Part shown: positions 3,248-51,837 of the stretch, one piece after another
Layout of the letters: each line of letters begins with the position of its first letter
How positions within the stretch are numbered: the first letter of the stretch is position 1
Origin: Candidatus Micrarchaeota archaeon
GTDB taxonomy: Archaea > Micrarchaeota > Micrarchaeia > Anstonellales > Bilamarchaeaceae
DNA: 64,000 bases
Reading direction: 5' to 3'
Assembly: GCA_038046805.1 (NCBI GenBank)
Contig: JBBSVO010000003.1
Coordinates: 83,120 to 147,119 of the forward strand
Made by a program: the position numbers and the translations under genes
The notes under the pieces: model-generated
Database searches by the model: none
What the model saw: only the letters and a program-made list of their open reading frames with translations
Told to the model about the DNA's origin: nothing

Positions 3248-3273
3248 ACAATAGCGATTGTTGTGTGATGTTG

Positions 3274-12038: not shown

Positions 12039-12189
12039 TGCGACCGTCGGGATTCGAACCCGAGTCATTAGCTTGGAAGGCTAAGATCCTACCGATGTCC
12101 AAACCAAATGGCAGGTGATGCATTATGGTTTTCGAAAACCTTTTGCCATAAGGTTTCATCAGCCAAAAGGTTTGCTAGACTACGATCGC
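12039..12189 (-). tRNA. tRNA-Gly(TCC) with 80-nt D-loop intron (15/16; 12095-12174)
   Basis: Spliced 71-nt cloverleaf GCGATCGTAGTCTAG/CGGTAGGAT...CT TCC AA...TTCGAAT CCCGA CGGTCGCA; BHB GTCT-AG|C ... GGAC-AT|C. Confidence 0.93.
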
Positions 12190-12223
12190 TACCGTAAATA
12201 AAAATGCGCAGAAAGGATTAAAA

Positions 12224-12409
12224 TCAGATTCTCTGGTCCGTAGCAGCAAGTCCTGCCCCTACACCTGCGAATATGCCTCCTGCTACCATCCATGTTGCAG
12301 ACGGAATTCCCTGAATTGGATTAATCGGCATGTTGCTGAATAACCCTAGTGCAAGCATTCCACCGCCAACTGCCATCACACCAACTCCGGTAAAAGTCTG
12401 TAAACCCAT
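12224..12409 (-). CDS. Small two-helix Gly-rich membrane protein
   Basis: 61 aa, two hydrophobic GxxxG segments, GGTGG SD-like motif, directly after tpiA. Confidence 0.6.
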   Translation of the reverse strand: MGLQTFTGVGVMAVGGGMLALGLFSNMPINPIQGIPSATWMVAGGIFAGVGAGLAATDQRI

Positions 12410-12424
12410 ATAGCCACCATTACG

Positions 12425-13078
12425 TTAAAACATCTCTGCAAGCCCTGCGAGGAATTTTTTCGGGTCGTCCGCATTTACGAACGCACTTGCAAGCAAAACC
12501 CCATCAACGCCAAGACCAAGCGCCTTTTTCACGTCTGCGGCATTGCTGACACCAGCACCACACAGTACTGGAATCTTATCGTTTATAGCCTTAATTTTCT
12601 TTATTGTTTCAGTTACGATTTCCGGCTTTGCATTTGAAACGCTAACTCCGCTTCCGATTAATTCGGGCGGCTCTATTGCAATATAAGTCGGATGAAACGT
12701 CGCAACCTGCTCCGCCTCTTTCGGACTTTCTGCACAAACCAGTCCTTCAAGCGCATTTTGATGAAGCCTTTCGATGGTGGCCTTTATTTTGTCATGCGGA
12801 CGAAGTTTTTTCTCTGAGTGATTAACAATAGAACCCTTGACTTTTATTTTTTTAAGAAGTTCCGCTGGAACCGAACCAGTGAATGCACCAGGACTCTCGG
12901 CATCAACGTGCTGTGCGAAAACGTCTGAGAACCTCTCTGCTGCATCCTTGAGAAATGGTGCTGGAGGACAAATAACGATTCTCACTCCGGTTTCCGCAAC
13001 TACTTCGCTGACAATGTCTGTAAAATAGAGTGCTTTTTCAAGCGTTCGGTCATATGTCTTCAGGTTAAGGACGATCAT
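12425..13078 (-). CDS. tpiA: Triosephosphate isomerase (archaeal type)
   Basis: NLKTY, VNHSE, AIEPPELIG, VLCGAGV, VLLASAFV. Confidence 0.97.
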   Translation of the reverse strand: MIVLNLKTYDRTLEKALYFTDIVSEVVAETGVRIVICPPAPFLKDAAERFSDVFAQHVDAESPGAFTGSVPAELLKKIKVKGSIVNHSEKKLRPHDKIKATIERLHQNALEGLVCAESPKEAEQVATFHPTYIAIEPPELIGSGVSVSNAKPEIVTETIKKIKAINDKIPVLCGAGVSNAADVKKALGLGVDGVLLASAFVNADDPKKFLAGLAEMF

Positions 13079-13136
13079 AATTGAATATTAGAAGGTAAAG
13101 AAATAAAAGAGGATTGCAACCCTAACTTATATATTC

Positions 13137-13342
13137 GCTGGAGTCGCATAACCTGGTAGTGCGTCGGTCTCGAACCGATTTTCGAGCAAACCGATCCCTT
13201 TGGGATTGTAGGTTCAAACACAAGCCTTTTGGATTCCAAAAGCATTAGGACAAAAGGCTGGTGCTTATCCAAAATCAAGGAGAAGCAAACGGAACCGTTA
13301 CGCGAAACGGAAAACCAAAAACTGAAAATCCTACCTCCAGCG
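13137..13342 (+). tRNA. tRNA-Ser(CGA) with 14-nt 37/38 intron (13175-13188) and 110-nt T-loop 59/60 intron (13219-13328)
   Basis: Acceptor GCTGGAG/CTCCAGC-G, anticodon arm TCGGT CT CGA A..A ACCGA, long variable arm, T stem GTAGG/CCTAC; central helices CTCG/CGAG and TTCA/TGAA each followed by 3-nt bulges. Confidence 0.9.
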
Positions 13343-13455
13343 TTTTGTTTTACAAAACGCGGTAGCCTGGCAGCAGCCAAGTCTGCCGGCGTTTTATTTT
13401 CTATTTCTCAGCCAAACCACTACCTTTATAAATAACAAACGACAAATATACATAT

Positions 13456-14703
13456 ATGACAACTCATAGGCAATTGTCACTTCCTGGTCTGAACGCAACC
13501 CCCGGAACACTTGCAAGAATTCACCGGATAGATAGAAGACTTACTCAAAAATGGGACGGTTTTAATGCACATATAGCACGTATTCTGGGAGAACTTGAGG
13601 ATGCAAGCTCGGCATCTCTTTACGTGGTACGCACAGAAAAACCGAACGGAACTGCAACTCCAGAAAGCGAACTGGCATTTTCATCAAAAGTAGTACGAAC
13701 CGTATTAACTGAAGAGCAGGCGAAAAGGAGAATCCCCCCATATAGGGTAGTTTCTGCAGAAGATAGTTGGGGCAGTTTAAGCGATCCTGAAAGAATTCAT
13801 CCTGCAACCACACTACGGGGAGGCATGTCGTTTATATTTAGCGATGGAAGAACAGCATCTAGTTATACTACTGATGAGGGGGATTATACTCATCGTGAAA
13901 TTGAATTAATAACACCTTCAACAACCAACCAGATACTTCTTCCATTATATACGGAAGTAGAAGGAGAAACTCCTGAAAGATTGGGGGTTCTCTCTTTTGA
14001 AGGAAAAAACCTTTTTTGGAAAGATTCGACCTGCGTAACCGAAGCAGAGAAGATGCTGGAGATTATGCTTATCATGTCCCTCCTCTCAACAGGCATATCT
14101 GCAAAACTTGAATCAGGAACAGACGCACTTACAAAACTCATGAGAAAAAAAGAGTTCAAGAGTGAACTAAGCCGAGTGCTTAGAGCAGTCAAAGAAGGAA
14201 CAATACCGGATTTTTCAATTGTGATGGCGGACATAGATTATTTCAAAAGGATAAACGACACACATGGGCACCTTGCCGGAGATGCAGTTCTTGAAATAGT
14301 CGCAGATGTTCTGATGAGCAGCGTCAGGAATGAGCAGAAAGTTGCACGAATGGAAGGAAGGAACGCCAATACCGAACATCCGATTTTTGATGTCGTTGCG
14401 AGATATGGGGGCGAGGAATTTGCCATAATCGCCATAACCGGCATAGACGGAGCGTTAAAGATGGCCGAAAGACTCAGGAAATCCGTGGAAGAAGCATGCA
14501 GAGAAATAGAAGGCAAAGTCTCGGGAGTAACCTGTAGTTTCGGAGTCGCAAGCCTTTTGCAGTGCATAAATGGCATTTCAGATATCGGAGCAGAAACAGG
14601 GCGGCTTATAATGGAAAGAGCGGACCAGATGCTTTATCAGGCAAAACGAAACGGCCGCAATAGGGTTGAACCGCAACCTGCGCCAACTGATTGGGCATTA
14701 TGA
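13456..14703 (+). CDS. GGDEF-domain (diguanylate cyclase-like) protein with GAF-like N-terminal region
   Basis: DALTKL, MADIDYFKRINDTHGHLAGDAVL, ARYGGEEF, TCSFGVA, ADQMLYQAKRNGRNRV. Confidence 0.93.
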   Translation: MTTHRQLSLPGLNATPGTLARIHRIDRRLTQKWDGFNAHIARILGELEDASSASLYVVRTEKPNGTATPESELAFSSKVVRTVLTEEQAKRRIPPYRVVSAEDSWGSLSDPERIHPATTLRGGMSFIFSDGRTASSYTTDEGDYTHREIELITPSTTNQILLPLYTEVEGETPERLGVLSFEGKNLFWKDSTCVTEAEKMLEIMLIMSLLSTGISAKLESGTDALTKLMRKKEFKSELSRVLRAVKEGTIPDFSIVMADIDYFKRINDTHGHLAGDAVLEIVADVLMSSVRNEQKVARMEGRNANTEHPIFDVVARYGGEEFAIIAITGIDGALKMAERLRKSVEEACREIEGKVSGVTCSFGVASLLQCINGISDIGAETGRLIMERADQMLYQAKRNGRNRVEPQPAPTDWAL

Positions 14704-14759
14704 TGTTGTTCCGCTATCCGAAGAATTTTTAATTCCAATCCTGCAACGTTTTCTTATTA

Positions 14760-15048
14760 GCCCCAATAGCTCAGGGCCCTTTTGACTTCTGAAACCTAAA
14801 GACAAAAGCGTTACATTTGAAAAACGTTGTTTCGTTTTTCAAAATTTTGAACGATTCGTCGTTCAAATCTTCGGAAAAGTCCTTAGGCAGCATAAATCAA
14901 AAGGGACGAGTAATGGTAGAGCGCCTCTCTCGTACTTGCTGGTTCTGAGTCAAGCGTTTTGTGTCTTATTATCCAAGACACTGAACTGGAAACTCGAAAC
15001 CGGAAACAGGCAAGGAGGAGGTCGGGAGTTCAAATCTCTCTTGGGGCT
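14760..15048 (+). tRNA. tRNA-Thr(CGT) with 139-nt D-loop intron (14775-14913) and 78-nt 37/38 intron (14935-15012)
   Basis: Spliced 72-nt cloverleaf GCCCCAATAGCTCAG/TGGTAGAGCGCCTCTCTCGTA/AGGAGG...TTGGGGCT; BHB GCTC-AG|G ... GAGT-AA|T. Confidence 0.9.
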
Positions 15049-15095
15049 ATTTGTATTTTATAATTATCAGTTCAAATGAATCTGGATGTGTTTAT

Positions 15096-16034
15096 ATGGA
15101 AGTTCTGGTTACTGGCGGAGCCGGTTTCATCGGCTCGAATATTGTTGAAAGATTAATTTCAGAAGGTCATTCAGTTACTGTCATAGACTGCCTTAACACG
15201 GGAAGTGAAAACAACCTCGCAGGAGTGCGGGACAAAATCAAATTCGTTCGTGGGAATTCCGGCGAGATTGAAAAACTCGTAAGTGGAAAAAAATTCGATA
15301 TCATCCTCCATCAGGGGGTTTACTCTACTTCTCCATTATATAAGGAAAACCGCTTGCTCACCGCAAAGGCTCTGGAAGAATTTATCAACATACTTGAATA
15401 CTGCACTAAGAACGGAACGCGACTGGTGTTCGCGTCGTCTTCTTCTCTTTACAATGGAGTAACTCCTCCGCACCGCGAGGATGCTCAAATCAATGTAACA
15501 GACTTTTACAGCGAAGCAAGACTGGCGATGGAAAGAGTCGCAACATTATACCATCAGCTTTATGGAACGAAAATAATTGCCCTCAGGTATTTCAGCGTTT
15601 ACGGGCCTCATGAAGAGGCAAAGGGAAAATATGCAAATCTCATAACCCAATTCTTATGGGCAATGATGAAAAACGAGGCACCCGTAGTCTATGGAGATGG
15701 TTCACAGACAAGGGATTTCGTCTTTGTCAGCGACATCGTTGAGGCAAACATGCTTGCAATGAAAAGCCCGCTTGAGTTCGGAATTTTCAATGTTGGAACC
15801 GGGCGCTCTGTTTCGATAAACGGGATGATTGAAATTTTGAACAACAAGCTCGGAACGAAACTACCAATAAAATACGTTGAAAATAAGGTGAAGAACTACG
15901 TGGCGCACACGCAGGCCGACACCTTGCTGACAAAAACAAAGCTAGGCTTTTCTGCAAAGACATCGCTTGAGGAAGGAATCGAAAAACTGATTGAATACAC
16001 CAAGTCTCGGGCGTATACTGAACCAAATAAGTAA
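15096..16034 (+). CDS. NAD-dependent epimerase/dehydratase (UDP-glucose 4-epimerase-like)
   Basis: VTGGAGFIGS, FASSSS, LRYFSVYGP, GDGSQTRDF; YxxxK appears as YSEAR. Confidence 0.93.
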   Translation: MEVLVTGGAGFIGSNIVERLISEGHSVTVIDCLNTGSENNLAGVRDKIKFVRGNSGEIEKLVSGKKFDIILHQGVYSTSPLYKENRLLTAKALEEFINILEYCTKNGTRLVFASSSSLYNGVTPPHREDAQINVTDFYSEARLAMERVATLYHQLYGTKIIALRYFSVYGPHEEAKGKYANLITQFLWAMMKNEAPVVYGDGSQTRDFVFVSDIVEANMLAMKSPLEFGIFNVGTGRSVSINGMIEILNNKLGTKLPIKYVENKVKNYVAHTQADTLLTKTKLGFSAKTSLEEGIEKLIEYTKSRAYTEPNK

Positions 16035-16200
16035 TACCGATTCGGAATATTAGCATTTATCTCGATGGTTCAGTATCCAGTGATCTGCTGATCACTAGCT
16101 GTTCACCAATGTGGTGAACATAGATCGAGCCATCTACAACTTCGAAGAAGTTGGAGAGACAGAGAATGCAATTCTCTGGGAAAAACTTATTTGGCTCGGG
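16013..16200 (+). repeat. Structured repeat (family M), copy carrying two double-hairpin inserts
   Basis: Homologous to the reverse complement of 60002-60097 except for inserts 16076-16120 and 16132-16178. Confidence 0.8.
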
Positions 16201-16253
16201 CGTAAACAGGGATAAGCAAAAACCTTTTAATCTCCAACTTCTTTTATGATACT

Positions 16254-16904
16254 ATGACAGAACTTGCAAAGAAAGTCGAGGATGGAAGATTATCCTCTAT
16301 CCTGAATTCCATTCAGATAGCTCTGGACCATTACGACGATATATTCTCTGATTTTGACCCATCTCCATTTAGTCAAAGAATGCTTTCAGATGATTTTCTC
16401 AAGGAGATGCAAAAGAGATATATAGAAACTAAAAAAGGGGAGTTTGAAATACGGTTTTCACTTCCAGCTTCAATAAGAGATGTAAAAACAGAGGGCTTGG
16501 TAAAGAAACGCCTTAAAGATTATTTCCACAAGCAGATAAAGAACGTGGATGTGGAAGTTGAAAAAAGACAAAATGCGGGAATACAACGCGCAGGATTTGG
16601 ATTCGTAGTTCTTGCAATAGAGCTTCTCATGACAGTATATGGATTCACAGCATTTCCTCTTAATTTCCTGGGTGTGATATTGGTTCCGGCTGGATGGTTC
16701 GGAATGTATTCTGGATTTGAAATGTTCTTTGACCATCCGAAAAAACTCAATGAGCAGAAGAAATTCTACAAAAAATTCCACGATGCGATATATCTTTTTG
16801 TTTCGGAAGAGGAGATTCTTGAGAGCATAGAGACTACTTCAGATCAAAAACCACTGGATGTCGTGATAAAGGATATTACAGAACGTGAAAAAGGAAAACC
16901 ATGA
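16254..16904 (+). CDS. Hypothetical two-TM membrane protein
   Basis: LDHYDDIFSDFDP..LSDDFL N-terminal motif, two hydrophobic helices. Confidence 0.8.
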   Translation: MTELAKKVEDGRLSSILNSIQIALDHYDDIFSDFDPSPFSQRMLSDDFLKEMQKRYIETKKGEFEIRFSLPASIRDVKTEGLVKKRLKDYFHKQIKNVDVEVEKRQNAGIQRAGFGFVVLAIELLMTVYGFTAFPLNFLGVILVPAGWFGMYSGFEMFFDHPKKLNEQKKFYKKFHDAIYLFVSEEEILESIETTSDQKPLDVVIKDITEREKGKP

Positions 16905-16961
16905 TTCTAAACAGCACGCTTTAAATCCCCTTTGCGACGCTAATTTTAGAATAAATTAAAC

Positions 16962-17073
16962 GGGGTCATGGGCTAACCTGGTAGACTACCGGCCTTGGGC
17001 GTCGGTGATTAGAGTTCAAGAGCCAGTCTAGACGCAAAACTCAAGACTGGAAACACAAATCTCTATGACCCCA
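16962..17073 (+). tRNA. tRNA-Pro(TGG) with 39-nt T-loop intron (~17020-17058)
   Basis: GGGGTCA/TGACCCC-A, CCGGC CT TGG GC GTCGG, TAGAG TTCAA[insert]AT CTCTA; exact register ambiguous because CAA repeats. Confidence 0.9.
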
Positions 17074-17122
17074 ATTTTTCTTTTTTTAATATGTGATCCG
17101 CGCTAGCGATGCGCATTCTGCG

Positions 17123-17560
17123 TTAGTTTTCCGGCATCCTTACAAGAATGAGAGACTGACCGGATTTTGAACCAGACCGTGGTTTTACTACAAAACCTTC
17201 TTTTTCATACAGCACGAGCGCACTTTCATTTTTTGGGCTGACTCTCAGGTAAACTGGTTTCCCAGACTTGAATAGAGGTTTGAGCAATGCCGAACCAACC
17301 CCCGTCGAACGAAATTCGGGAAGAACACCAAGACCCTTTACGGAAATTGAGCCGCCCGTTCCCATGCTCTCTGAAAAATTAATAAATCCTACACGTTTGC
17401 CATCAACCTCAGCAACAGTAACTTTATCGTCTTTTTTGATTATTGTTTCCGCATCGATTTCAGGGAAGATCGCATGAATTAATTTGGTTATTTCGATTAG
17501 TTCGTCTTTGCGCATTGGACGGATTTTTATTTCCTCCGACCGATGTTGTAGATGTCCCAT
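17123..17560 (-). CDS. GNAT family N-acetyltransferase
   Basis: LGVLPEFRSTGVGSALL, NESALVLYEKEGF. Confidence 0.9.
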   Translation of the reverse strand: MGHLQHRSEEIKIRPMRKDELIEITKLIHAIFPEIDAETIIKKDDKVTVAEVDGKRVGFINFSESMGTGGSISVKGLGVLPEFRSTGVGSALLKPLFKSGKPVYLRVSPKNESALVLYEKEGFVVKPRSGSKSGQSLILVRMPEN

Positions 17561-17692
17561 TTCAAATCCCGGTTTCTCTCTAATTCATCAACTATCTGAC
17601 TCAGCAAGGAAGCTTTTATTTGTTTATACTGGTCTGGAGTAGGAAGAACATTTTAGAGCATTCTTGAAATTTGCTTTTTGTATTTCATTTTT

Positions 17693-18406
17693 CTATTTCT
17701 CGAAATGCCTTGTTGCCGAGTCAAGCATTGCTCTGAATTCTGCAAGAAGTTCATGAACAAGATTTAGTGCAATATGTTGCATCGCACTTGATTTGTTACC
17801 TGGGTACTTCCGTAGTACGTCATAAAATAGTTTGTAGTACGCAATTTCGAACTCGGTTTCAGAAACGTGAATGTCTGGAAGGTCTGTATATGTACCAATT
17901 AATAGATTGGTCTGGAACGCACCAGTTAAATTCTCGTAACATCTCGGTTCCAGCCCATTTTCTACCGATGTAAAGGACGAAACGGGTTTTAGCTTGATTA
18001 AAAGATTGCCAATAGCTCGATCCAGTCTTATCAACCCAGATATGCTCAAAAAAGAAAAACCAGTTGGAGAATTATTTTGAAAGTTATTGAAATATATTGA
18101 TGCGACTACTGTGGAAGTGTCCGTATACAAGGAGAAGCATCCGACTTCGATTCGTGCTGAACCACTTTCAATACTCACACCAGCAGTAGTTCTTTCAGTA
18201 ATTATAGCTGAGTTGACTCTGCGCAAATCTTGCATACGTCTGAATTGCTTTTCAATTTCTGGTTCTGACCTTGAGAAATATCGTTTTTCTTCAGTCTTTC
18301 CTATAACGCCATCTAATCTTTCGAACGTTTTTGTGCATATACGCTCTGTTCTTCTAAATTGTTCGCAAATTCTAGGACGATTTTGGAAGTGGTTCATATA
18401 TACCAA
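17693..18406 (-). CDS. Hypothetical protein
   Basis: 237-aa ORF directly after the upstream ORF. Confidence 0.6.
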   Translation of the reverse strand: MVYMNHFQNRPRICEQFRRTERICTKTFERLDGVIGKTEEKRYFSRSEPEIEKQFRRMQDLRRVNSAIITERTTAGVSIESGSARIEVGCFSLYTDTSTVVASIYFNNFQNNSPTGFSFLSISGLIRLDRAIGNLLIKLKPVSSFTSVENGLEPRCYENLTGAFQTNLLIGTYTDLPDIHVSETEFEIAYYKLFYDVLRKYPGNKSSAMQHIALNLVHELLAEFRAMLDSATRHFEK

Positions 18407-18407
18407 C

Positions 18408-19079
18408 CTATCTTATCGGAACTTCAATACCAAGCTGCGCGTTTGCCGCCAGCAGTTTTCCATCCTCTGGGTCTGACATTCCGAAAGCCCTTACAAAGAA
18501 ATTCGCGACTTTTGTTTTCAGGGTTAATTGCACTGTTCCTCCGGCATTTGGAGATTCTTTTCCCTGTACAAATGGGACAATCGCTGTTGCTGAAACAGAG
18601 ACTGGGTCAAAACCCAAATCCGCACCAGCAAAAACCGGAGTGTTTCCTGTTATATCCAGTTCTGCACCTGCGCGTAGACCCAAGGAACTTGAAGACAAGT
18701 GTGCTACTCCGCCGAAAGCCCTTTGATTTCCAAGAAACCGACTTCTTTGTGCATACGCGGTTAATCCAAACCCACCGGGGGCAGACAGAGTAAGGTTTGC
18801 CCCTGCTTTTTCAAGCGAGGTCGCTCCACTCTCTAAATCACCGGCAAATGCAGTGCCAAGCCCTAGATTAGCACATCCAAATGTAAGCGAATGCTCAATG
18901 CCCAAACCTGCTTCATGTGTCTCTCCCTTTGACGTTTGATAAAATGCCTGAGTTGATAAACGGCTCTGTAATGAATCAGCATTTGCCTTGAATGGCAAAA
19001 GCAGCGTTGCTACAGACGCCACGACAGTAATTACTTTTCCAGAGCTTCTGCTAACCGTTTGTAAACTAACCATAAGCAC
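18408..19079 (-). CDS. Secreted protein with beta-barrel-like alternating strands
   Basis: Signal peptide ending ANA-D, then many amphipathic strands (AGLGIEHSLTF, GANLTLS, GLRAGAEL, NAQLGIEVPI). Confidence 0.6.
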   Translation of the reverse strand: MLMVSLQTVSRSSGKVITVVASVATLLLPFKANADSLQSRLSTQAFYQTSKGETHEAGLGIEHSLTFGCANLGLGTAFAGDLESGATSLEKAGANLTLSAPGGFGLTAYAQRSRFLGNQRAFGGVAHLSSSSLGLRAGAELDITGNTPVFAGADLGFDPVSVSATAIVPFVQGKESPNAGGTVQLTLKTKVANFFVRAFGMSDPEDGKLLAANAQLGIEVPIR

Positions 19080-19179
19080 ATCACCTTTCTAATTTTTCTA
19101 CAGCAGTTTGAACTGCAGTTTATGATATTATCTACGACATACCCAATATTTAAATGCTATTGGTGGCAATTATCACCAC

Positions 19180-19929
19180 ATGTACGAGTCGACATTAGAG
19201 GAGCTAGGGCTTACCTTAAACGAATCTAAGGTTTACGAGGCGCTTTTGTCGTTAGGCAGTTCTTCTATCGAGCAAATTGCAATTAAATCCAAGGTTCACA
19301 GAAGAAATATTTACGATGTTCTTGCCAAGCTATTAGAAAAAGGGTTAATCTCCGAATCATTCGACTATAATAGAAAAGAGTACCGTGCCATTCACCCATC
19401 GCGTTTGCTGGACTTGATACAGGAAAAGGAGAATAAACTACAGATTATTCTGCCAGAATTGGAAAAACGTTTTAGTCACTACGAGGAAGAGGAAACTGCA
19501 TATATGTACAAAGGAATTAACGGTTTTAAGCAGTATCTACAAGACATCCTAGACGTAGGAGAAACAGCTTATTTTATCGGGGCAAAGGGATTTTGGCTTG
19601 ATCCAAGGCTCCAATATTTCCTGCCAAAATTCGAGATAGAACGAAAGAAACTCGGAATAAAATTCATGCACATCTTTGATTATGAGGTAAAGGAACAGAA
19701 ACCGGAGATATTGAAATTGGTTGGCCGACCATACAAATTCCTGCCGAAGGATTACTCAAGCCAGACCTCAATTGATTTCTTTGGTGACAGAATAGTTACA
19801 TTCGTTGGAGTTAAACCCGGCCAACTTGACGAGGAACCCACCCAGTTCGTAATGCGAAGCAGACGATTAGCAGACGGTTACAGAAAATTCTTCAATTTTA
19901 TGTGGGATAAACTTCCATTTGACTATTAG
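19180..19929 (+). CDS. TrmB family transcriptional regulator
   Basis: LEELGLTLNESKVYEALL...HRRNIYDVLAKLLEKGLI. Confidence 0.9.
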   Translation: MYESTLEELGLTLNESKVYEALLSLGSSSIEQIAIKSKVHRRNIYDVLAKLLEKGLISESFDYNRKEYRAIHPSRLLDLIQEKENKLQIILPELEKRFSHYEEEETAYMYKGINGFKQYLQDILDVGETAYFIGAKGFWLDPRLQYFLPKFEIERKKLGIKFMHIFDYEVKEQKPEILKLVGRPYKFLPKDYSSQTSIDFFGDRIVTFVGVKPGQLDEEPTQFVMRSRRLADGYRKFFNFMWDKLPFDY

Positions 19930-19934
19930 TTACC

Positions 19935-21546: not shown

Positions 21547-21605
21547 AATGAGATAGTTGGCGGAATACTATTTAAAGCATATCTTATCTCAATTATAACG
21601 TGGCG

Positions 21606-21658
21606 GTTAGCTCCTAGCTTCTAGGTACTAGCCCCTAGCCAAGAGCCAGGAGCCATAA
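21606..21658. repeat. Degenerate heptamer array arranged as an inverted repeat
   Basis: CTCCTAG CTTCTAG GTACTAG CCCCTAG CCAAGAG CCAGGAG. Confidence 0.7.
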
Positions 21659-21674
21659 ATAACAGGTAGAAACC

Positions 21675-22193: not shown

Positions 22194-22207
22194 ATTGAGG
22201 GATTTGC

Positions 22208-26115: not shown

Positions 26116-26131
26116 ATTAACACCAAACCAA

Positions 26132-27193
26132 TTAATACCTGACCTTGGCGGATTTTACCGCATCTTCCAGAGCATACATAACCCGAAATGCAAGCTCCCA
26201 TAGGTCTGCGCAACCAGAAAGGTCTGGAAGCAAACCCAGGGGGGTTGGGGTTCTCAAAACTGCGTACTCGGGATATTTCCCAAGTTTTGACTTCAGTCTT
26301 AACAGATCATTAAATGCATTTATTGGAGGGAATGGCACGCAAAGCGGGCAAAAATCAGATATGGATTCAACTGCCTTAAATGCCAGCCTTGCAATCTCCG
26401 GGATTTTTCCGCTATCGAATTCAAATGGGGAAACCGCATAGGCAAGCTCCGGACATAAAATGCCAGGCAACAGAAGATAGAATTCACTGTAGTTCCATGA
26501 AGCAGATGGCCGCACTTTTCCCTCCAATGCCAATTTTTCTATATCCTCGAGCGAATACTTTCCATACTTGCCTCCGTAAAAGGTTTGCGGAATAAGAAGG
26601 CGCCCTTCTTTCACGAATAGCTGGCCTATCTTCTGCCCGCTTGACTTGAGATTCATTAGCACAATCTTTGAATAAAATGGAGACAAGTCACGGACATATG
26701 ACACTTGCGGTATCCTGCCTGCCTCCTGCCTAAATGAATCTGCCATAAGGTCTCCGCGCGCATTCCTTAATTCGTCCAGCGAGGTATAAGGTTCTGGCTT
26801 AGGGACGGTTTCGCGAAGTACAATTGCATTATCAACATCCCAAACATACTGAGATATGAAACTATCCTTGTAAGGCGCAGGCATCCAGCAATCCAAAGTA
26901 AGTTCAAGAATCCCAAAAGGAACCCCGAGTTCTCTTGCAATGGCAAAACCCATCAAAGCCTCTGCATCCAACCGTGCGAGTTGCCGTGGAAGAACAACTC
27001 CACACAGGTTTAGTTCCAGAGAATCGAAATCCACGCCCCATCTTTCCTTTAGGTATTTGCGTGCCTTTGAAGAACAATCCGAGGATGCTCGCTGTCTGGT
27101 TTCTTCCCCAAACTGCTCTTTTGAAAGAACGTATGGGAGCCTAAAGGTTTCCCTGCAGTATTTTTCAGCAATACCACGGATATCACTTCGCAT
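26132..27193 (-). CDS. Hypothetical protein
   Basis: 353-aa ORF downstream of the radical SAM gene; no motif recognised. Confidence 0.7.
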   Translation of the reverse strand: MRSDIRGIAEKYCRETFRLPYVLSKEQFGEETRQRASSDCSSKARKYLKERWGVDFDSLELNLCGVVLPRQLARLDAEALMGFAIARELGVPFGILELTLDCWMPAPYKDSFISQYVWDVDNAIVLRETVPKPEPYTSLDELRNARGDLMADSFRQEAGRIPQVSYVRDLSPFYSKIVLMNLKSSGQKIGQLFVKEGRLLIPQTFYGGKYGKYSLEDIEKLALEGKVRPSASWNYSEFYLLLPGILCPELAYAVSPFEFDSGKIPEIARLAFKAVESISDFCPLCVPFPPINAFNDLLRLKSKLGKYPEYAVLRTPTPLGLLPDLSGCADLWELAFRVMYALEDAVKSAKVRY

Positions 27194-27297
27194 ATCCGAA
27201 ACAGTGAAGTAAATCCCTTCCCATTCTCTGTTCCCGATTCTCAGCTCCTGGTTTCAGGTTTCCCGCTCCAGGCCTCCTGTTTTCTGTTTTGTACATT

Positions 27298-28284
27298 TCA
27301 AATCCCTCCTTTTTGTTTTTCAGTTTTTTCTCTTTCTGAACGTGACAAATAGTGATACGCCGGACAATCAAGCGGATTTCCCTTTGATGAAAACTCCCTT
27401 TCTCGCACGAGTTCTCCGTCCTCATAGCGGCCTATTGCATTTTCAGGCTGTGTGAGGTAGATACATGGATAGATATTGCCGTCAACCCCGATGGTAAGGC
27501 CGCCATCCCTTGAACCTGCACCACAGCAAAATTGTTTTTTCCTGAACTGAGTGCCTAAAGAGCCTGCAGCTGAAAGATAGATAGCCGGATAGCGGATGCG
27601 TAATTCATCAAGCATCCCGAAGAAATTCCCAGTTTCCTGCTCAGTTAGCATTTGCGGACCTTTTCCATTAATCCGCAAGTATCTCAAGAACTGAACCACC
27701 TGCGCGCCCTGACAGATACACTCTTCGGCCATTTGCGGGACAAAATCCAAATTCCTCTGTGTAATAGTGATGCGCATCATCAATTCAAGTCCGCTTGCAA
27801 CCACGCGCCTCGCAGCCTCACGCACGATATCAGAGGAGGTAAGCCTCAGTCCGCTGTTTTCAAAATTCGCGGTCAGGACAACCTGCCTTATCCCAATATC
27901 CCTTATCTCTTCGCACAAATCCGATTTTTCAACAAGAACTCGGCCATTTGTAAGAACAGATGTTGAAGCAGAAGCCTTGAGGATTTCGGCCAATCTTCTG
28001 AATCGCAGAACCTCAGTTGTGCTTGCGAATACGGAAAACCCGGCTTTCCTGAACCTGAGAAGATCTACGATTATCGCCTCTTCGGTTCTCTTGATCCTCT
28101 TTTTATATGCGCCTCCGGATAGCACAAAACACCCAGTGCAGCGCGAATTGCAGGGAGGTTCTGTTTCTGGCAAAAACATATATGTAATTGTGGGGCGCCG
28201 TGCGAATTTCTTCATATATTCCGGAATTGATGCAAATTTTCGGCCGCACGCTGGCGCGCAGGTAGGATTAATCATTTTTTCCAC
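27298..28284 (-). CDS. Radical SAM protein with SPASM/Twitch domain
   Basis: CNSRCTGC, LTNG, CGAG...GNIYPC...C. Confidence 0.9.
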   Translation of the reverse strand: MEKMINPTCAPACGRKFASIPEYMKKFARRPTITYMFLPETEPPCNSRCTGCFVLSGGAYKKRIKRTEEAIIVDLLRFRKAGFSVFASTTEVLRFRRLAEILKASASTSVLTNGRVLVEKSDLCEEIRDIGIRQVVLTANFENSGLRLTSSDIVREAARRVVASGLELMMRITITQRNLDFVPQMAEECICQGAQVVQFLRYLRINGKGPQMLTEQETGNFFGMLDELRIRYPAIYLSAAGSLGTQFRKKQFCCGAGSRDGGLTIGVDGNIYPCIYLTQPENAIGRYEDGELVREREFSSKGNPLDCPAYHYLSRSEREKTEKQKGGI

Positions 28285-28555
28285 CTCGACACCTTCCGTA
28301 CCTCAAATAAGCGCAATTTCTTGAGAATTTCCGCCCGTTTGCCATATCGCTGTCGCTGGCTTTCGCTAATTCAATAATGATGCTATTGGCTCCTGGCTTC
28401 TGGCTACTAGCTACCGGCCAACTGCCACTAGCAATTCGGATAATTATTTTTCCATTCGTTTCAATTCCGAGAGCCTCGCGTATTTCCAGCGGTAAAACTA
28501 GACGCGCCTTTGAATCAAGCGCAATAACGTATTTTCGTTGCTCAATGAAGTACAT
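28268..28555 (-). CDS. AbrB/MazE/MraZ-like DNA-binding protein with in-frame heptamer-repeat stretch
   Basis: LDSKARLVLPLEIREALGI; segment ASGSWPVASSQKPGANS is encoded by 7-nt repeats. Confidence 0.8.
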   Translation of the reverse strand: MYFIEQRKYVIALDSKARLVLPLEIREALGIETNGKIIIRIASGSWPVASSQKPGANSIIIELAKASDSDMANGRKFSRNCAYLRYGRCRGGKND

Positions 28556-28663
28556 CCCTTTTTGTGAAGTACATCCCTTCCTTTGTTCACCATATCCATT
28601 ACCTGTTTCTGATTTTCTTTGCTTACAGATATTGTATCTTTCCCACTTAATATACGTTTCGGT

Positions 28664-28972
28664 TTATTGATTCAACACCAGCAAAAAGCTTGTGTCTTTA
28701 TTCGCACTTAGCGAATGCACTGCCTTTTTCTTCATGTGGATAAACGTGCCAGGAAGCATCGGGATTCCCTCTCCCTCTAGAGTGAACGTGCCGTTGCCTT
28801 CTATAACATAGACTAACCCTTCTTTGGTGGACGTATGCTCGCCAAGCTCCGTTCCCTTTGCCATGCAGAACAACGTAACATCCACTTTATCGCTTTTTGA
28901 TATTACCTTGCTCACAATGCCGCCGTTTGAATACGAAATCATTTCCTTCAGGTTTTTCCATGTTTTTGGCAT
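28664..28972 (-). CDS. Cupin domain protein
   Basis: LGEHTS..GLVYVIEGNG...AVHSLSA. Confidence 0.9.
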   Translation of the reverse strand: MPKTWKNLKEMISYSNGGIVSKVISKSDKVDVTLFCMAKGTELGEHTSTKEGLVYVIEGNGTFTLEGEGIPMLPGTFIHMKKKAVHSLSANKDTSFLLVLNQ

Positions 28973-29031
28973 GACGGGAATTCACGATTTACAGTTTATA
29001 TTTGTTTCCGTTCATAATTCTTAGATGTTAT

Positions 29032-29171
29032 AGCCCCGTCGTCTAGAGTCTTGTGTCCAGCGTCTAGAGTTTCAAAAATACGAGACTGACGACTCAAGAC
29101 ACGAGACGGACTTTGGTCAAGGATGACAGGCTCTGGACCTGTATACGTCGGTTCGAATCCGATCGGGGCTA
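29032..29171 (+). tRNA. tRNA-Gln(CTG) with 67-nt D-loop intron (15/16; 29047-29113)
   Basis: AGCCCCG/CGGGGCT-A, ACAGG CT CTG GA CCTGT; BHB GTCT-AG|A GTCTTGTGTC...GACACGAGAC GGAC-TT|T. Confidence 0.93.
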
Positions 29172-29215
29172 TTTTAATTCCATAACTTTTTAATCCAAAC
29201 CGCATAAATACCGCC

Positions 29216-29623
29216 ATGCATCCCTTAAGCGAGGAGTTCAAAAAAAGCTTTGAGAATGAAAGCTGGGACTCCATAGCGCATATGGCACTGACGTTCCAAA
29301 TCGAACTTGAAGAGGACGACAAACATCAGAAAAGGCTCAAAAAGGAATTGGGGATGCTCAAACATGTGCTTCATCATCATTTGAAAGACCAAGAAGCCGC
29401 GGCAAGAAATCTGAATATAACGTTCTTTGTCCGCCTGCACAAGACAATAACACGATTAGAAAAGGCATTTGACAGGCATGACGTAAAAAGAAGGGAATTT
29501 TTAGTATTTCTCAAGGCAATTTTGCATAAATTAAGAAACACAAAATTCAGGGTATTCAAGACATTGGAAAGAAAAAACGAATTTGGAAGAATGAAGGGAT
29601 TGATGGACAAGAAGAATGGATGA
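29216..29623 (+). CDS. Hypothetical basic helical protein
   Basis: 135-aa ORF whose 3' end abuts the pgi start region. Confidence 0.65.
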   Translation: MHPLSEEFKKSFENESWDSIAHMALTFQIELEEDDKHQKRLKKELGMLKHVLHHHLKDQEAAARNLNITFFVRLHKTITRLEKAFDRHDVKRREFLVFLKAILHKLRNTKFRVFKTLERKNEFGRMKGLMDKKNG

Positions 29624-29648
29624 AGGATTAAGAGAGATGGGAAATAAT

Positions 29649-30374
29649 ATGGTCGAAATCTACAAAGAACCTTTGAAAATTGAACTTGACGGAACAAAAC
29701 TGCATGTAAATGGAGCGCCGCATCCAAGCAGCGTGAGAAAGCTTGGCCAGATGCAGGAAGTGCTGATGCAGCATGTTGAGCCAAAATCAGAAGAGGATTT
29801 CAATACTTACTGGATGTACCGCAAGGTATATTTCTCGAATAACATCAGATTCGACATTACCCTTCTGCCAGCGAGAATGCTTGGAGGAGAATACATGAAA
29901 ACATATGGGCATTACCACCCAAAAGCACAGGATGGAAGCAGTCTTGGATATCCTGAGATATATCAGGTGCTTAAAGGAAAAGCGATTTTTATACTTCAGG
30001 AAAAAAACAAAGATGGGAGCGTAAATGTAACCGTGCAGGATGCAAACGAAGGAGACATTGCAATAATGCCCCCAGGAAACGGACACGTTACTGTAAATAA
30101 CGGAATAGAAGACATTATACTGTCAAATCTGGTATATGATAATTTCGAATCGGAATACGAAGATTACAAAATATATAGAGGCGCGGCATTTTATGCCACC
30201 GAAGAGGGATTAAAACAGAATACGGAATATCTTGTTAAAAAATTCAGCCGTATAAAGGCAACAGAATTCATCAAAAAATATGGAATCACGGTAAGGGATT
30301 TACTTAAGGAATTCTACAGCAACCCGGAAAAATTCGCCTTCTTAGAAAAGCCCGGACTGCTCTTTGGGCGCTGA
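29649..30374 (+). CDS. pgi: Cupin-type (archaeal) glucose-6-phosphate isomerase
   Basis: EYMKTYGHYH, YPEIYQVLKG, MPPGNGHVTVN, YRGAAFY. Confidence 0.85.
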   Translation: MVEIYKEPLKIELDGTKLHVNGAPHPSSVRKLGQMQEVLMQHVEPKSEEDFNTYWMYRKVYFSNNIRFDITLLPARMLGGEYMKTYGHYHPKAQDGSSLGYPEIYQVLKGKAIFILQEKNKDGSVNVTVQDANEGDIAIMPPGNGHVTVNNGIEDIILSNLVYDNFESEYEDYKIYRGAAFYATEEGLKQNTEYLVKKFSRIKATEFIKKYGITVRDLLKEFYSNPEKFAFLEKPGLLFGR

Positions 30375-33074
30375 CTTCAGTCGTCCACTCGCGAGCTTTT
30401 CATTCCCGCCACCGCCTCCACCGAACTTTGAAGCCAGTTTTTGCATTAGGTCGCGGGCATTTACAGATTTGTTGCTGGAAGCGCAGACCGTATCCCCAAG
30501 ATTATTTACAAGGATAGCTGAAACACCGACACCGCCTGCTGTGAGCAGAAGATTTCCGATTTTTCTAAGGGTTTCTGCATCCGTATCAAGTATTCTTACC
30601 GCGGTTTTGCCACTTGCAATGCTTTCTTTTACTACTTCGGCAGCTTCGCTTTTTGCAAATCCTTCTGAAAGCTCCACTATCTTTTTCTTTTGCTCTTTCC
30701 ATTCATTGAAAAATCGTTCAACAGTCTTCTTCAGCTCATTGTCACTTACGCTTACAACCAACGCGGCATCGCGGAGCATTTTTTCCTTTTCCTGAACATA
30801 TGCAATTGCAACAGTTCCGCATTTGTAGGTTATTCTTTCTACACCATCCTGAATACCCTCGCGTTTCACGATTTTGAAGCATCCAATTTCGCCAGTGCTT
30901 TTTAGCATGTGATGGGTTCCGCCACACGCTTCGGTGTCGATTCCCTTGACCGAAACAATGCGAAGTTCTTTTCCCGGAACTGCACCGCCCTGATAAAGCG
31001 TGAAACCATATTTTGATTCCGCAACGTTTCGCGGCAAAACTTCAACAAGAATCGGAACGTTTCGCAAGATGTATTCATTTACCTTTAATTCGATTTTGTC
31101 CAGCTCCTCCTGCGTTGTGCGCTTGTAATGAGTGACGTCCAAATGCGCTTTTTCCGCATCCTTGTGAGAACCGCCCTGCCAGATATGGTTTCCCAGAATC
31201 TCGCGACAAGCCGCATTTAACAGGTGCGCAGCTGTGTGATGACGAGTGATTGTTTTCCTGCGTTCCAACTCAACTTCGCCTTTGATCTTTTGACCGGATT
31301 TGAACTTGGAAGCATCTGCAGAAGAAACTTCGTGAAGGATTACGCCTGCCTGTTTTTGGGTATCGGTTACAGAGATTCCATTTAATGTTCCGGTATCGCC
31401 TACCTGTCCGCCCCCTTCTGGATAAAAAGCAGATTTGTCAAGAACAACATACTTGCTGCCAATTACTCCAAGGACTTTTGCATCAAACGAACCGGACGAA
31501 CCGGACGAACCAGACCCCTTTTCCGAATAGTATAGCGGCTCTGTTTTATCGAATTTTGAAACATCTAATTTTGCTCCCTCTTCTTTCTTTGCTTCTCCTT
31601 CCTTTTCACGCACTAACCCGTAGAAGTTACCCGGAACATGAACTTTTACTCCAGACTCTTTCGCGACTTCCTCTACAAACTCTGGCGGAACACCATGACT
31701 CTTGTAAAGCGTAATAAGATCGTCAGTCTTGATTGAACTGTTTACTCCATCAGCTCCTTTGGAAAGCATAGAAACTACTTTTCCTCGCGCTTTTTGTTTT
31801 GTTGCCTCGTATTTCTTTTTTTCTTCTGTGATGACGTCCGCGGTTGATAAGACTCCGCTCTTTAGATTCGGAAACAAGTCTGTAAGATGCGCAGCATGAA
31901 GTTCGAGGATTTTCGCATAATCAAACTTGAAACCATATTCTTCTTCGAAACCAAACGCACGCCTAAGAATGAGCCGTAAATTATATCCGCCTCCGGCATT
32001 GCTCGGAAGCATTCCATCTGTAACCGCTGAAAGGACCGTGAGCAAATGATCACTCGTGGCATAAAGCGCCTGCAACGGCTCAATATGCGAGAAAAGCTCT
32101 TGCTTGGAAATACCCAGTTTTTTTGCGATGGATTCTTTTTCTGCTTCAACGTCGGCAACTTCATCTATGTTAAGGCTTCCTGACATGCGGGCATATTGTG
32201 TGAACAGTTTTTCATCAACTTTAACGCCATGCTCCTTTCTCAGATATTTTATGACTGGTCCGAAAACAACTTCATAACTGGTTGCAGCGTCATTTGTTAT
32301 CCATGCAAGTCTCTCAAGACCTGCACCCATATCAATAACTTTCGTACTGAGTTCTCGTCCAGAACCGTTCGGTAAAACCTCGTATTGCATAAAGACGCAA
32401 TTTCCTAATTCGAGTCCGCCAACGAAATATTCCATGCTTGGACCGTAGTTTCCGCCACCTGCCCAGACATCTTCCATGAAAACAAGCTCTTCTTTCTGGA
32501 TTCCCAGCGCTTTAAGATACGCAACATCATGCATCAATGCTTCGTCCTTCCAGTAGAAAAGTCCTGTCTTTTTTGTGTTGAACGCGTGTTGACCGACCAT
32601 AACGAAATTAGTGTAGTGCCGCCCGGTTACGCCGACGTTCGCTATATCGGGAAACCGTATGCAGTGCTGCGGAATGAGCAATGGATTATGAGGCGGGGGA
32701 AGCTCGCCATTAACCACGTAAGGCTGAAAATCATTGATCGATGCGATTGAAAAGTAAAGGTCGTCCCTCCATCTTGCGACCGTGGGATAGGAATCGATTA
32801 TTCCATGACCATGTTTTGAAAAGTATTTTTTCAATTCATTCCAGGTTTCAACATAACCGAGTTTTCGCCTTGAGGGAGATTTTCCAATGAATGGATACCC
32901 AATACAAGATGCGTCAGCGCAATATTCCCTTTCTCCGCCGCTCCAGAAATTCCTTCCGCATTTCTTGCATTTCTGACGGGTGAACCCCATCTCGACAATG
33001 CTCTTTATCTTGTAATGCTTCTCCCAGTCCCTGGAGAATTGTTTTCGAAGATCGTTTTTGTCAACATCTGGCAT
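30342..33074 (-). CDS. alaS: Alanine--tRNA ligase
   Basis: VARWRDDLYF, GRHYTNF, IDMGAGLER, HHTAAHLL, EACGGTH, GGGGGG. Confidence 0.98.
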   Translation of the reverse strand: MPDVDKNDLRKQFSRDWEKHYKIKSIVEMGFTRQKCKKCGRNFWSGGEREYCADASCIGYPFIGKSPSRRKLGYVETWNELKKYFSKHGHGIIDSYPTVARWRDDLYFSIASINDFQPYVVNGELPPPHNPLLIPQHCIRFPDIANVGVTGRHYTNFVMVGQHAFNTKKTGLFYWKDEALMHDVAYLKALGIQKEELVFMEDVWAGGGNYGPSMEYFVGGLELGNCVFMQYEVLPNGSGRELSTKVIDMGAGLERLAWITNDAATSYEVVFGPVIKYLRKEHGVKVDEKLFTQYARMSGSLNIDEVADVEAEKESIAKKLGISKQELFSHIEPLQALYATSDHLLTVLSAVTDGMLPSNAGGGYNLRLILRRAFGFEEEYGFKFDYAKILELHAAHLTDLFPNLKSGVLSTADVITEEKKKYEATKQKARGKVVSMLSKGADGVNSSIKTDDLITLYKSHGVPPEFVEEVAKESGVKVHVPGNFYGLVREKEGEAKKEEGAKLDVSKFDKTEPLYYSEKGSGSSGSSGSFDAKVLGVIGSKYVVLDKSAFYPEGGGQVGDTGTLNGISVTDTQKQAGVILHEVSSADASKFKSGQKIKGEVELERRKTITRHHTAAHLLNAACREILGNHIWQGGSHKDAEKAHLDVTHYKRTTQEELDKIELKVNEYILRNVPILVEVLPRNVAESKYGFTLYQGGAVPGKELRIVSVKGIDTEACGGTHHMLKSTGEIGCFKIVKREGIQDGVERITYKCGTVAIAYVQEKEKMLRDAALVVSVSDNELKKTVERFFNEWKEQKKKIVELSEGFAKSEAAEVVKESIASGKTAVRILDTDAETLRKIGNLLLTAGGVGVSAILVNNLGDTVCASSNKSVNARDLMQKLASKFGGGGGGNEKLASGRLKSAPKEQSGLF

Positions 33075-33218
33075 GAAATCAACTTTCAGTGTTCTAATGT
33101 TTTCGGATAAAACTTTTAAAGCAACGGTTATCCGTTGAAGTAGCTACCCATAGGCACAACCACATAATTTTTAAACAGAATTCGACTCATTCTTAGAATA
33201 CCATTTACGCTTAGCTGT

Positions 33219-33473
33219 GGGCCCGTAACTCAGCTTGAACCTTTTGACTTCTGAAACCTAAAGGCAAAACGTTTCATGTCAAGAACGACGTTTCGTTCTT
33301 GAGCATGATCATGAACGGTTCGCCGTTCATGACATCGAAAAGCCCTTAGGTAGCACAAGTCAAACGGTTTCTGAAATGGTAGAGTGCCGGACTCTTATGG
33401 TCCTGAGTCTTGAGTTTAGAGTCTTGGGATTTAAGAAATCCGTTTGCCAAGGGTTCAAATCCCTTCGGGCCCG
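33219..33473 (+). tRNA. tRNA-Lys(CTT) with 141-nt D-loop intron (17/17a; 33236-33376) and 40-nt 37/38 intron (33398-33437)
   Basis: GGGCCCG/CGGGCCC-G, CCGGA CT CTT A..A TCCGT, AAGGG TTCAAAT CCCTT; BHB TCAG-CT|T GAACC...GGTTT CTGA-AA|T. Confidence 0.9.
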
Positions 33474-51234: not shown

Positions 51235-51282
51235 AATAAGGTAAGTGAACTACCCACGGCTGAAGCCGTGGGCTTCCACGAC

Positions 51283-51777: not shown

Positions 51778-51837
51778 TTGTCAAGAACGACGAATCGTTC
51801 TTGATCATGCTCGTGAACGAAACGTCGTTCACGACAT
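51778..51837. repeat. Double-hairpin repeat, family A
   Basis: Reverse complement is 51/60 identical to 33276-33335 inside the tRNA-Lys intron. Confidence 0.9.

Follow-up and report, generated by a model that had tools for sequence, protein, structure and literature searches.

The window analysed here is a 64,000-nucleotide stretch of a Candidatus Micrarchaeota genome (C3:83120-147119 of G000, a metagenome bin of 1.2 Mb that is 86% complete), and three of its tRNA genes carry a D-loop intron built from the same repeat, which we call F1. The tRNA-Gly(TCC) gene (12039..12189, minus strand) contains an F1 intron of 80 nucleotides (nt) between positions 15 and 16 (12095..12174, minus strand). The tRNA-Thr(CGT) gene (14760..15048, plus strand) has two introns, of which the first is a 139-nt F1 intron at 15/16 (14775..14913, plus strand). 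The tRNA-Lys(CTT) gene (33219..33473, plus strand) also has two introns, and here the F1 intron is 141 nt long and lies at 17/17a (33236..33376, plus strand). The Thr and Lys introns are filled by an additional double hairpin, which the Gly intron lacks. The central helix of the bulge-helix-bulge (BHB) structure has 4 of 4 pairs in each case (GTCT/GGAC in Gly, GCTC/GAGT in Thr and TCAG/CTGA in Lys), the D- and T-loop junctions in this genome having been chosen partly by the score of that helix. An archaeal BHB intron has at its junctions a 4-bp helix with a 3-nt bulge on either side. Removal of the introns restores the cloverleaf and gives spliced forms of 71-74 nt, and that of tRNA-Gly matches intron-free orthologues such as the one at locus L029, its junction being equal to theirs.

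A first-pass annotation made from the sequence had placed the three introns at these same positions and lengths and had read them as one intron family in three different tRNAs, with filled and empty alleles. Their relatedness was borne out. The common motif occurs three times in the window and in none of 100 shuffles, and each pairwise local alignment scored above the maximum of 500 shuffles (Gly-Thr 44 vs 36, with the Gly intron entered as a 78-nt form; Gly-Lys 50 vs 29; Thr-Lys 141 vs 37). The covariation proposed between Thr (GAC/GTC) and Lys (GGC/GCC) is also found across the family, as pair 28-53 is G-C in 10 and A-U in 3 of 13 sequences. A sequence model of the repeat (R1) gives the Gly intron 68 bits, this sequence being part of its training set, and recognises the Thr (E 1.8e-5, fold z -4.5) and Lys introns (E 8.6e-8, fold z -7.6), both of which were outside the training set. 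In the window there was no match to any intron or ribozyme family of Rfam, the group I and II catalytic cores included, whether the gathering score was applied or E was relaxed to 5. Likenesses to the hammerhead, the hairpin ribozyme, the K-turn and c-di-GMP motifs, considered by eye, were rejected as they are not conserved across copies.

The supposed family of three members is much larger. There are 21 copies of F1 in the genome, of which 20 were found with R1 (E<0.03; 13 of these are training sequences of the model) and one is a split copy in tRNA-Leu(GAG); several shortened or hybrid copies were left out of this count. All of the 18 copies that lie within tRNA introns are in the sense orientation (10 in D-loops, 4 in anticodon loops and 4 in T-loops). 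The remaining three lie outside tRNA genes at C3:78009, C6:217934 and C6:218031, and no Rfam family was found for them. The earlier reading is therefore incomplete, since the unit is a repeat that is present outside introns too. At C3:77870-78130 (L019) a 17-nt T-arm-like sequence occurs three times, separated by repeat inserts of which one is F1, and this region has no Rfam match. Just downstream of the two free copies on C6, the start of a gene (C6:218240-218400) contains an in-frame hairpin insert between direct duplications of ~33 nt; judged by its N-terminal motif, this gene resembles RNA 3'-phosphate cyclase.

The F1 core is ~55 nt long and consists of a short flank, a T-tract, 20-22 nt, an A-tract, a small hairpin, a second A-tract and a GCC(A/C)TGAG-like end. 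Its 5' end lies at or a few bases from the insertion point or splice site (5-7 nt before the search pattern in 28 anticodon introns). The 3' part varies, yet fits the host: in the 28 anticodon introns, whose junction is fixed at 37/38, the central helix has a score of 3.18 (maximum 4) with the host it belongs to and 2.42 with hosts permuted, none of 10,000 permutations being as high, and the corresponding values for the 22 anticodon introns of G000 are 3.27 and 2.46. The long rod into which 13 aligned unfilled copies can be folded has 75% of cells paired vs 70% in shuffled sequences (0 of 500 as high, a result that the relatedness of the copies inflates). Pairing between the T-tract and the first A-tract is better conserved, with 83% paired and four invariant pairs.

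The lengths of the tracts are linked. From 218 matches to the pattern, 208 distinct cores were kept after a stem filter had removed 10; the one bacterial match remained among them. The spacing from T-tract to A-tract is 20-22 nt in 207 of the 208, and the rank correlations of tract length are 0.95 between the T-tract and the first A-tract, 0.52 between the two A-tracts and 0.56 between the T-tract and the second A-tract. All three tracts are equal in length in 72% of cores vs 22% when permuted. With one core per apical type (99 types) the correlations are 0.93, 0.55 and 0.60 and the equal fraction is 70% vs 29%, and coordinated shifts are seen within most of the 11 types in which the T-tract varies. 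Two A-tracts and one T-tract of matched length suggest that the core may form a triple helix. On its reverse strand the core reads as a stem, a U4/U4 loop, a stem, a linker and A4, which is the geometry of an element for nuclear expression (ENE).

The splicing enzyme that would act on such introns is present. EndA of this genome, a protein of 393 amino acids (aa), has its best match in the epsilon2 endonuclease structure of ARMAN-2 (4FZ2; E 1e-137), with which it aligns from one end to the other, and epsilon2-type endonuclease cuts relaxed BHB motifs, as reported in PMC3239211. A second protein of 177 aa with a weak match to a tRNA-endonuclease domain is encoded at L002:1456-1989 (minus strand), in the region of C2:150197.

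The distribution of F1 was determined in several sets of sequences, which may overlap, and the counts are not additive. With R1, 21 of the family's 43 other genomes gave F1 matches, and 77 genomes that represent 11 further families of the order gave none; this survey used strict filters and scored 40 candidates per genome in incomplete genomes, and some of the negative calls are false negatives. When 185,579 species genomes were searched with an exact pattern, 75 loci matched. One of them is bacterial, and the other 74 are in Micrarchaeota or archaeal bins, some of them named Bilamarchaeaceae. The same pattern had no match in viral contigs, and it is present in at least 121 metagenome stretches, 80 of these being the matches listed. 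The 75 loci hold 76 matches, of which 65 were automatically classed as tRNA-loop sites, one of these really being in 5S rRNA. The other 11, assigned by eye, lie in 16S rRNA, in 23S rRNA, at the 3' end of RNase P RNA, just past stop codons (two), in an intergenic tandem (one) and on the reverse strand in or at tRNA genes (four), and the last is the bacterial match.

The F1 inserts in 5S (76 nt), 16S (82 nt) and 23S rRNA (265 nt, compound) have BHB helices with 4 of 4 pairs. The 5S insert was seen at two loci (L241 and L335) at the same junction in loop C with a perfect BHB, and its removal gives a canonical 5S rRNA. Three loci have F1 antisense in RNase P RNA, some have copies directly after stop codons, and in one metagenome lineage F1 has expanded mainly between protein genes. 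Inverted pairs (L206, L247, L257, L258 and L202) and tandem arrays (L151-L153, L276, L280 and L334) also occur. In one relative (G078) two introns of tRNA-Gly have a stretch of ~100 nt in common with an intron in rRNA, as judged by eye. Direct duplications of ~10-35 nt stand beside some F1 copies and beside most there are none. Repeat inserts that adjoin tRNA genes at L160 (G006), L131 (G022), L164 (G078), L079 (G081) and L192 are flanked by direct duplications of the 5' or 3' end of the tRNA, and resemble failed insertions rescued by duplication. A short relative of F1 (26-29 nt: a T-tract hairpin, a small loop and an A-tract) was found in introns of other members of the family and at 23 viral loci (L380-L402), several of them in giant-virus bins, with no recurring neighbour gene at these viral loci by eye.

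Since the genome is a metagenome bin and in relatives some of the tandem arrays are found where a contig ends (L151, L280), the inserts might be suspected to be assembly artefacts. Contigs of other sequencing runs match the filled Thr intron (X11, 14616-15041) and the filled apex of the Lys intron (X12, 33180-33360) with 0 differences, an orthologous F1 intron with substitutions is present in the closest relative, and 74 of the 75 loci are archaeal. For the window an artefact is refuted, and for F1 as a whole its probability is close to nil.

The closest relative (G001) is a species of the same genus, and its tRNA genes were compared by eye. The two species have F1 in common at Lys(CTT), Ile(GAT), Glu(TTC), Pro(CGG), Pro(GGG), Ala(GGC) and Leu(GAG). 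Gly(TCC) of G001 has no 15/16 intron and hence no F1 (in many relatives the Gly(TCC) gene is intron-free); Thr(CGT) has an unrelated intron at the F1 site; and Gly(GCC) is without F1, the ends of the intron being retained around a different middle (L150). Conversely, F1 is present in G001 at sites that are empty in G000, namely the Ala(TGC) D-loop, the Ala(GGC) and Asp anticodon loops and the Met T-loop. F1 sites thus turn over between sister species of one genus. Within G000, the nearest neighbour of 10 of the 14 F1 introns compared lies in another tRNA gene at 81-83% identity, and for 9 in a gene of a different isotype; the D-loop intron of Glu and the anticodon intron of Pro, for example, are 82% identical. 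The proposal that the intron has moved between tRNA genes is upheld by these neighbours, which cross isotype and position, and by the orthologous sites that differ between the two species.

Movement between tRNA genes is itself no novelty, as copying of introns between them has been published for Thermoproteales (PMC4090602, PMC4033280, as far as their accounts go), and F1 could be explained as ordinary transposition of that type. Exon flanks held in common would then allow introns to be copied by recombination or gene conversion with no dedicated element, and the free copies would be debris. Most F1 copies are indeed in tRNA genes, both ends are common to the D-loop copies in GCTC hosts (Thr, Ile, Tyr) and likewise to the ones whose hosts have GTCT (Gly, Glu), and Gly(GCC) in G001 has an exchanged middle between retained intron ends. 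Against such copying stand the jumps between D-, anticodon and T-loops, or into 5S, 16S and 23S rRNA, RNase P RNA and the ends of genes, where no flanks are shared, and the lineage in which F1 lies mainly between protein genes. The fixed internal spacing and the linked lengths of the tracts imply that the core itself is under selection, and the D-loop intron of Ala and the anticodon intron of Asp in G001 are near-identical by eye, which already suggests identical copies at unrelated flanks. Conversion through shared flanks probably contributes within the D-loop subfamilies; as a full explanation of F1 we consider it rather unlikely.

The second element lies nested within some F1 introns. In the Lys intron it is a 58-nt double hairpin with TGTCA...TGACA ends (33277..33334, no strand assigned), which is absent from the G001 ortholog, and in the Thr intron a double hairpin of a TTTGA-ended subtype occupies the apex (14816..14867, no strand assigned), with similar free copies on C1 and C3. 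A free copy ~83% identical to the Lys insert is found in the window in the leader of an IS200-type tnpA (51779..51836, no strand assigned), next to an IS200-like Y1 transposase gene (51283..51756, minus strand; Pfam Y1_Tnp, E 3.5e-29) that has no adjoining F1 core. The claim of filled and empty alleles stands in part: the Lys insert is clean and has an empty ortholog in G001, whereas the Gly(TCC) intron that had served as the empty form differs from it in the apex and is a paralogue. Another matching empty form is found in the Gly(GCC) intron of G000. The size of the insert against the G001 Lys(CTT) ortholog is 58 nt and not 60, and at the Lys site taken alone an overlap of 2-3 nt makes its ends ambiguous. 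The Thr intron proved to be filled too, by a different double hairpin.

Filled copies make up 4 of the 21 (Lys, Thr, Leu-GAG and C6:218031), with differing subtypes at differing points, and 27 adjacent hairpin pairs, some overlapping, are dispersed over the genome. Because the G001 ortholog is empty, few copies are filled, the filled ones differ in subtype and point and the double hairpin is dispersed, gain is much more likely than loss, two alternatives that the first-pass annotation had left side by side. In the T-loop intron of Leu(CAA) one double hairpin is inserted inside another. Insertion occurs without target duplication, and the flanks of the Lys and tnpA-leader copies differ. The mini-elements derived from IS200/IS605 insertion sequences (IS) likewise lack target duplication, and the end hairpin of the resident IS (51245-51280) and the ends of the TnpB element are unlike the double hairpin by eye. 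The idea that the double hairpin is a nested BHB intron was rejected, as its ends show no BHB by eye.

The reading that we favour, with a probability of about 0.55, is that F1 is a non-autonomous mobile repeat of one Micrarchaeota family, similar to repetitive extragenic palindromic (REP) sequences or miniature inverted-repeat transposable elements (MITEs), which is copied at the DNA level and persists within RNA genes where it can make a BHB. Copying would depend on a trans-acting enzyme, in the manner of REPs and REPINs or of MITEs. An inverted pair of F1 copies, or one copy with the stub of a second, would fold into a rod, and when the last bases of the insert also pair with the upstream exon a BHB would form. 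The three-unit epsilon2 endonuclease, an enzyme of broad specificity, and a ligase could then remove the insert, which the cell would therefore tolerate as a new intron. A sequence landing in an existing intron would ride free, and the nested inserts (F1 with the double hairpin, one double hairpin in another, and hybrids with heptamer repeats) would be found because of this. The linked tract lengths would arise if the folded core, possibly a triple helix, is recognised by the mobilising enzyme.

Several observations weigh against this mobile-repeat reading. About 85% of the copies are in tRNA genes, a bias beyond what survival alone easily explains, which points to targeting at the RNA level or to recombination between tRNA genes. 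F1 copies have no fixed target duplication, and D-loop subfamilies follow the type of the flanking exon, with the retained ends of Gly(GCC) in G001 being what gene conversion would give. In 7 of the 28 anticodon introns just 2 of 4 helix pairs are formed. The triple helix is deduced from lengths only, and the pattern could equally arise from two alternative hairpins; moreover the tract-length statistics come from related cores that are not independent and from a search pattern that admitted no tract shorter than 4. No spliced joint was seen in one RNA run, which was covered as contigs and at low depth. No mobilising enzyme was found for F1. A Y1 transposase was detected in 7 of 17 F1-positive and in 5 of 20 F1-negative genomes (counting the genomes covered by both searches), a distribution without co-occurrence; no F1 core adjoins 10 Y1 loci or the TnpB locus in these incomplete genomes; and no transposase was evident beside the intergenic F1 copies, where translations were judged by eye only. 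In the contigs of 4 runs neither an empty nor a spliced joint was seen, and as contigs drop rare variants this is no evidence of absence.

Reverse transcriptases (RTs) miscopy adenines when they belong to diversity-generating retroelements (DGRs), and this bears on an RNA route for F1. An excised circular intron, or an antisense transcript with an ENE-type triple-helix 3' end, would be reverse-spliced into another stable RNA, or primed on such an RNA or on nicked DNA, and then reverse-transcribed into the genome. Such a route would fit the one precise and one variable end of F1, the duplications of variable length, the tandem arrays and the preference for loops of abundant stable RNAs, and the strand opposite to the core has ENE geometry as that is defined in PMC7583470. 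Wobble pairs in the core stem are antisense-suited in 42 cases vs 17 sense-suited ones when one poorly paired column is omitted; with the column restored the count is even (41 sense-suited vs 42). RT was detected in 8 of 17 F1-positive vs 5 of 20 F1-negative genomes, and of 16 RT loci an F1 core is nearby at the one of G000 only. That RT, the only one detected in G000, is of the DGR type with a frame broken at a G-run and adjoins tRNA-Gly(CCC), and the A-tracts are among the invariant columns of F1 despite the miscopying of adenines by such enzymes. Tandem units, in addition, end differently from the host intron. We regard the RNA route as rather unlikely as well, and RT and Y1 transposase were both rejected as mobilisers for want of co-occurrence with F1, some of the F1-negative calls being false negatives. 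The DGR (C11:463-2692, minus strand, L174) comprises a target gene, a template repeat and the RT; the G-run that breaks its frame is long, the RTs of most relatives are split at about the same place, and programmed frameshifting or phase variation is possible.

A stronger form of the mobile-repeat reading can be proposed tentatively. F1 might be an archaeal intron-making element with a triple-helix core and a mobiliser of its own, which targets the loops of stable RNA genes, gains a BHB matched to the host as it inserts and makes new protein-spliced introns in the genes of tRNA and of 5S, 16S and 23S rRNA faster than the scale of a genus. This we find possible, with the odds against it.

Introns are nearly universal in the tRNA genes of this genome. 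They were found in 40 of the 41 tRNA genes detected, and one gene is without an intron. The 38 genes that could be parsed contain 67 introns with a median length of 53 nt, and further introns are present in Ser(GGA), which was not parsed, and in a permuted Ala(GGC) gene, both outside this count. Genes for His, Asn, Leu(CAG), Glu(CTC) and Arg(CCG) tRNAs were not found in the 86% complete genome. ARAGORN recovered 1 of the 5 tRNA genes of the window, that one partially, and its output on the whole genome at a relaxed score was mainly noise. It could be held that so many introns are kept for the benefit of the host, blocking integration of viruses at tRNA genes or acting as small RNAs, with F1 as a domesticated module. 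The protective idea has been discussed (PMC3293823 and PMC3218864, in the parts that deal with introns), and conservation of the core extends over many genera. Intron-free orthologues are common among relatives, however, sites turn over within the genus, copies become decayed, truncated or fused to other repeats, and no Rfam family matches; a host benefit is very improbable as the explanation.

The other introns of the window belong mostly to a second type. The anticodon intron of tRNA-Thr (78 nt, 14935..15012, plus strand) is built from heptamer repeats and is part of a separate dispersed family. The tRNA-Pro(TGG) gene (16962..17073, plus strand), overlooked in the first-pass annotation, has a 39-nt heptamer-type T-loop intron, and the tRNA-Gln(CTG) gene (29033..29170, plus strand) a 67-nt heptamer-type D-loop intron at 29047-29113. 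The anticodon intron of tRNA-Lys is 40 nt long (33398..33437, plus strand) and lies at position 37/38 or 38/39. Genome-wide, many other introns are made up of degenerate repeats of 7 bp and of a hairpin repeat, rich in purines, that is related to F1 (14935-15012 and 29047-29113 of the window are examples), and both kinds of repeat are also intergenic and adjoin tRNA genes. A four-helix-bundle (IVP) gene was considered as a partner of the heptamer repeats and rejected, with 0 matches in the 86% complete genome.

Two further tRNA genes were noted. A tRNA-Ile with the anticodon TAT is encoded at C7:97785-97938 (plus strand); relatives have one too, and so does ARMAN-2 (PMC3239211, in its account of the tRNA set). 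The tRNA-Ala(GGC) gene (C4:76042-76300, minus strand, L008) appears to be circularly permuted, with its last 14 nt upstream of the 5' end, a break at 59/60 with a BHB of 4 of 4 pairs and no other 3' end downstream. The layout is identical in G001 (L409), where the trailer is an F1 copy. Thermofilum pendens has a permuted tRNA with the same arrangement, according to the section of PMC3218864 on such genes, and no permuted tRNA gene of the DPANN archaea turned up in a literature search. Among the protein genes of the window, a GGDEF diguanylate-cyclase domain protein, in an archaeon, is encoded just upstream of tRNA-Thr (13456-14703, plus strand), and the gyrA open reading frame (ORF; 3265-6993, plus strand; 1242 aa) matches in two stretches and also matches an intein-containing GyrA model.

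The arrival of archaeal tRNA introns is an open question, for which F1 offers a traceable donor. Its many dated steps comprise orthologues that are filled or empty, sites gained or replaced inside one genus, copies that stand free, doublets and arrays, and so the route is testable by population sequencing and by epsilon2 cleavage in vitro. F1 may show how new archaeal introns arise, and it predicts a spliced intron in 5S rRNA. A literature search, outside which subscription papers lay, found no description of the F1 repeat or of a BHB intron in 5S rRNA.

Introner elements of eukaryotes are non-autonomous mobile elements that make removable introns, as F1 would, and depend on spliceosomal signals where F1 would depend on a BHB cut by protein; they also differ in that no target-duplication rule was found for F1 here. 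REP, REPIN and BIME (bacterial interspersed mosaic element) repeats are, like F1, short, palindromic, non-coding, non-autonomous and restricted to lineages, and occur as singles, inverted pairs and tandem arrays, as set out in the available account (PMC3337134). REPs are extragenic in that account, whereas F1 is mostly intronic in RNA genes (18 of the 21 copies in G000 are within tRNA genes), and the Y1 gene of REP/RAYT systems is flanked by the repeat, whereas 0 of 10 Y1 loci here have an F1 core. With the ENE triple helices of KSHV PAN, MALAT1 and plant and fungal transposon RNAs the reverse strand of F1 shares a U-rich loop, G-C pairs and a matching A-tract downstream (PMC7583470, from its description of the fold). 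The word archaea does not occur in that review, and the ENE-like geometry predicted for F1 is found only on the strand opposite to the host tRNA transcript. Archaeal 16S rRNA has short hairpin introns of the BHB type that are free of ORFs like the rRNA copies of F1; as described in PMC4496867 they are below 50 nt, unrelated between loci and explained by co-conversion with homing endonucleases, while the F1 copies of different loci and RNA classes belong to a single family. ARMAN-2 (Ca. Micrarchaeum acidiphilum) is of the same phylum and also has a three-unit epsilon2 EndA and introns in D-, anticodon and T-loops. In the report on it (PMC3239211, as far as it covers introns) 56% of tRNA genes are disrupted vs 40 of 41 here, the two introns tested are 13 and 25 nt long vs a median of 53 nt here, and there is no description of a repeat family. 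For one Caldiarchaeum intron an origin from a mobile element has been proposed (PMC3293823, in its discussion of that intron).

Fujishima et al. 2010 reportedly described transposed tRNA intron families of Thermoproteales. In the relevant sections of PMC4090602 and PMC4033280, similar introns are found across tRNA isotypes of this order, and the mechanism of their transposition is called unknown in the former. A census of Asgard tRNA introns from 2026 gives copying in 28.3% of Thermoproteales introns and in 1.5% of Asgard ones, and in its summary reports no general arrival route (10.64898/2026.10.13.758758). F1 resembles the Thermoproteales families in that introns at least 80% identical occur in at least two tRNA types of one genome. 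It differs in its longer, structured unit (a core of ~55 nt in an 80-nt intron) and in its rRNA, RNase P and intergenic copies, pairs, arrays and nested inserts, none of which belongs to those families as PMC4090602 and PMC4033280 describe them. What is newly added here is a defined donor with free copies, sites in rRNA and RNase P RNA, nested invaders, a true empty ortholog and a possible triple-helix core.

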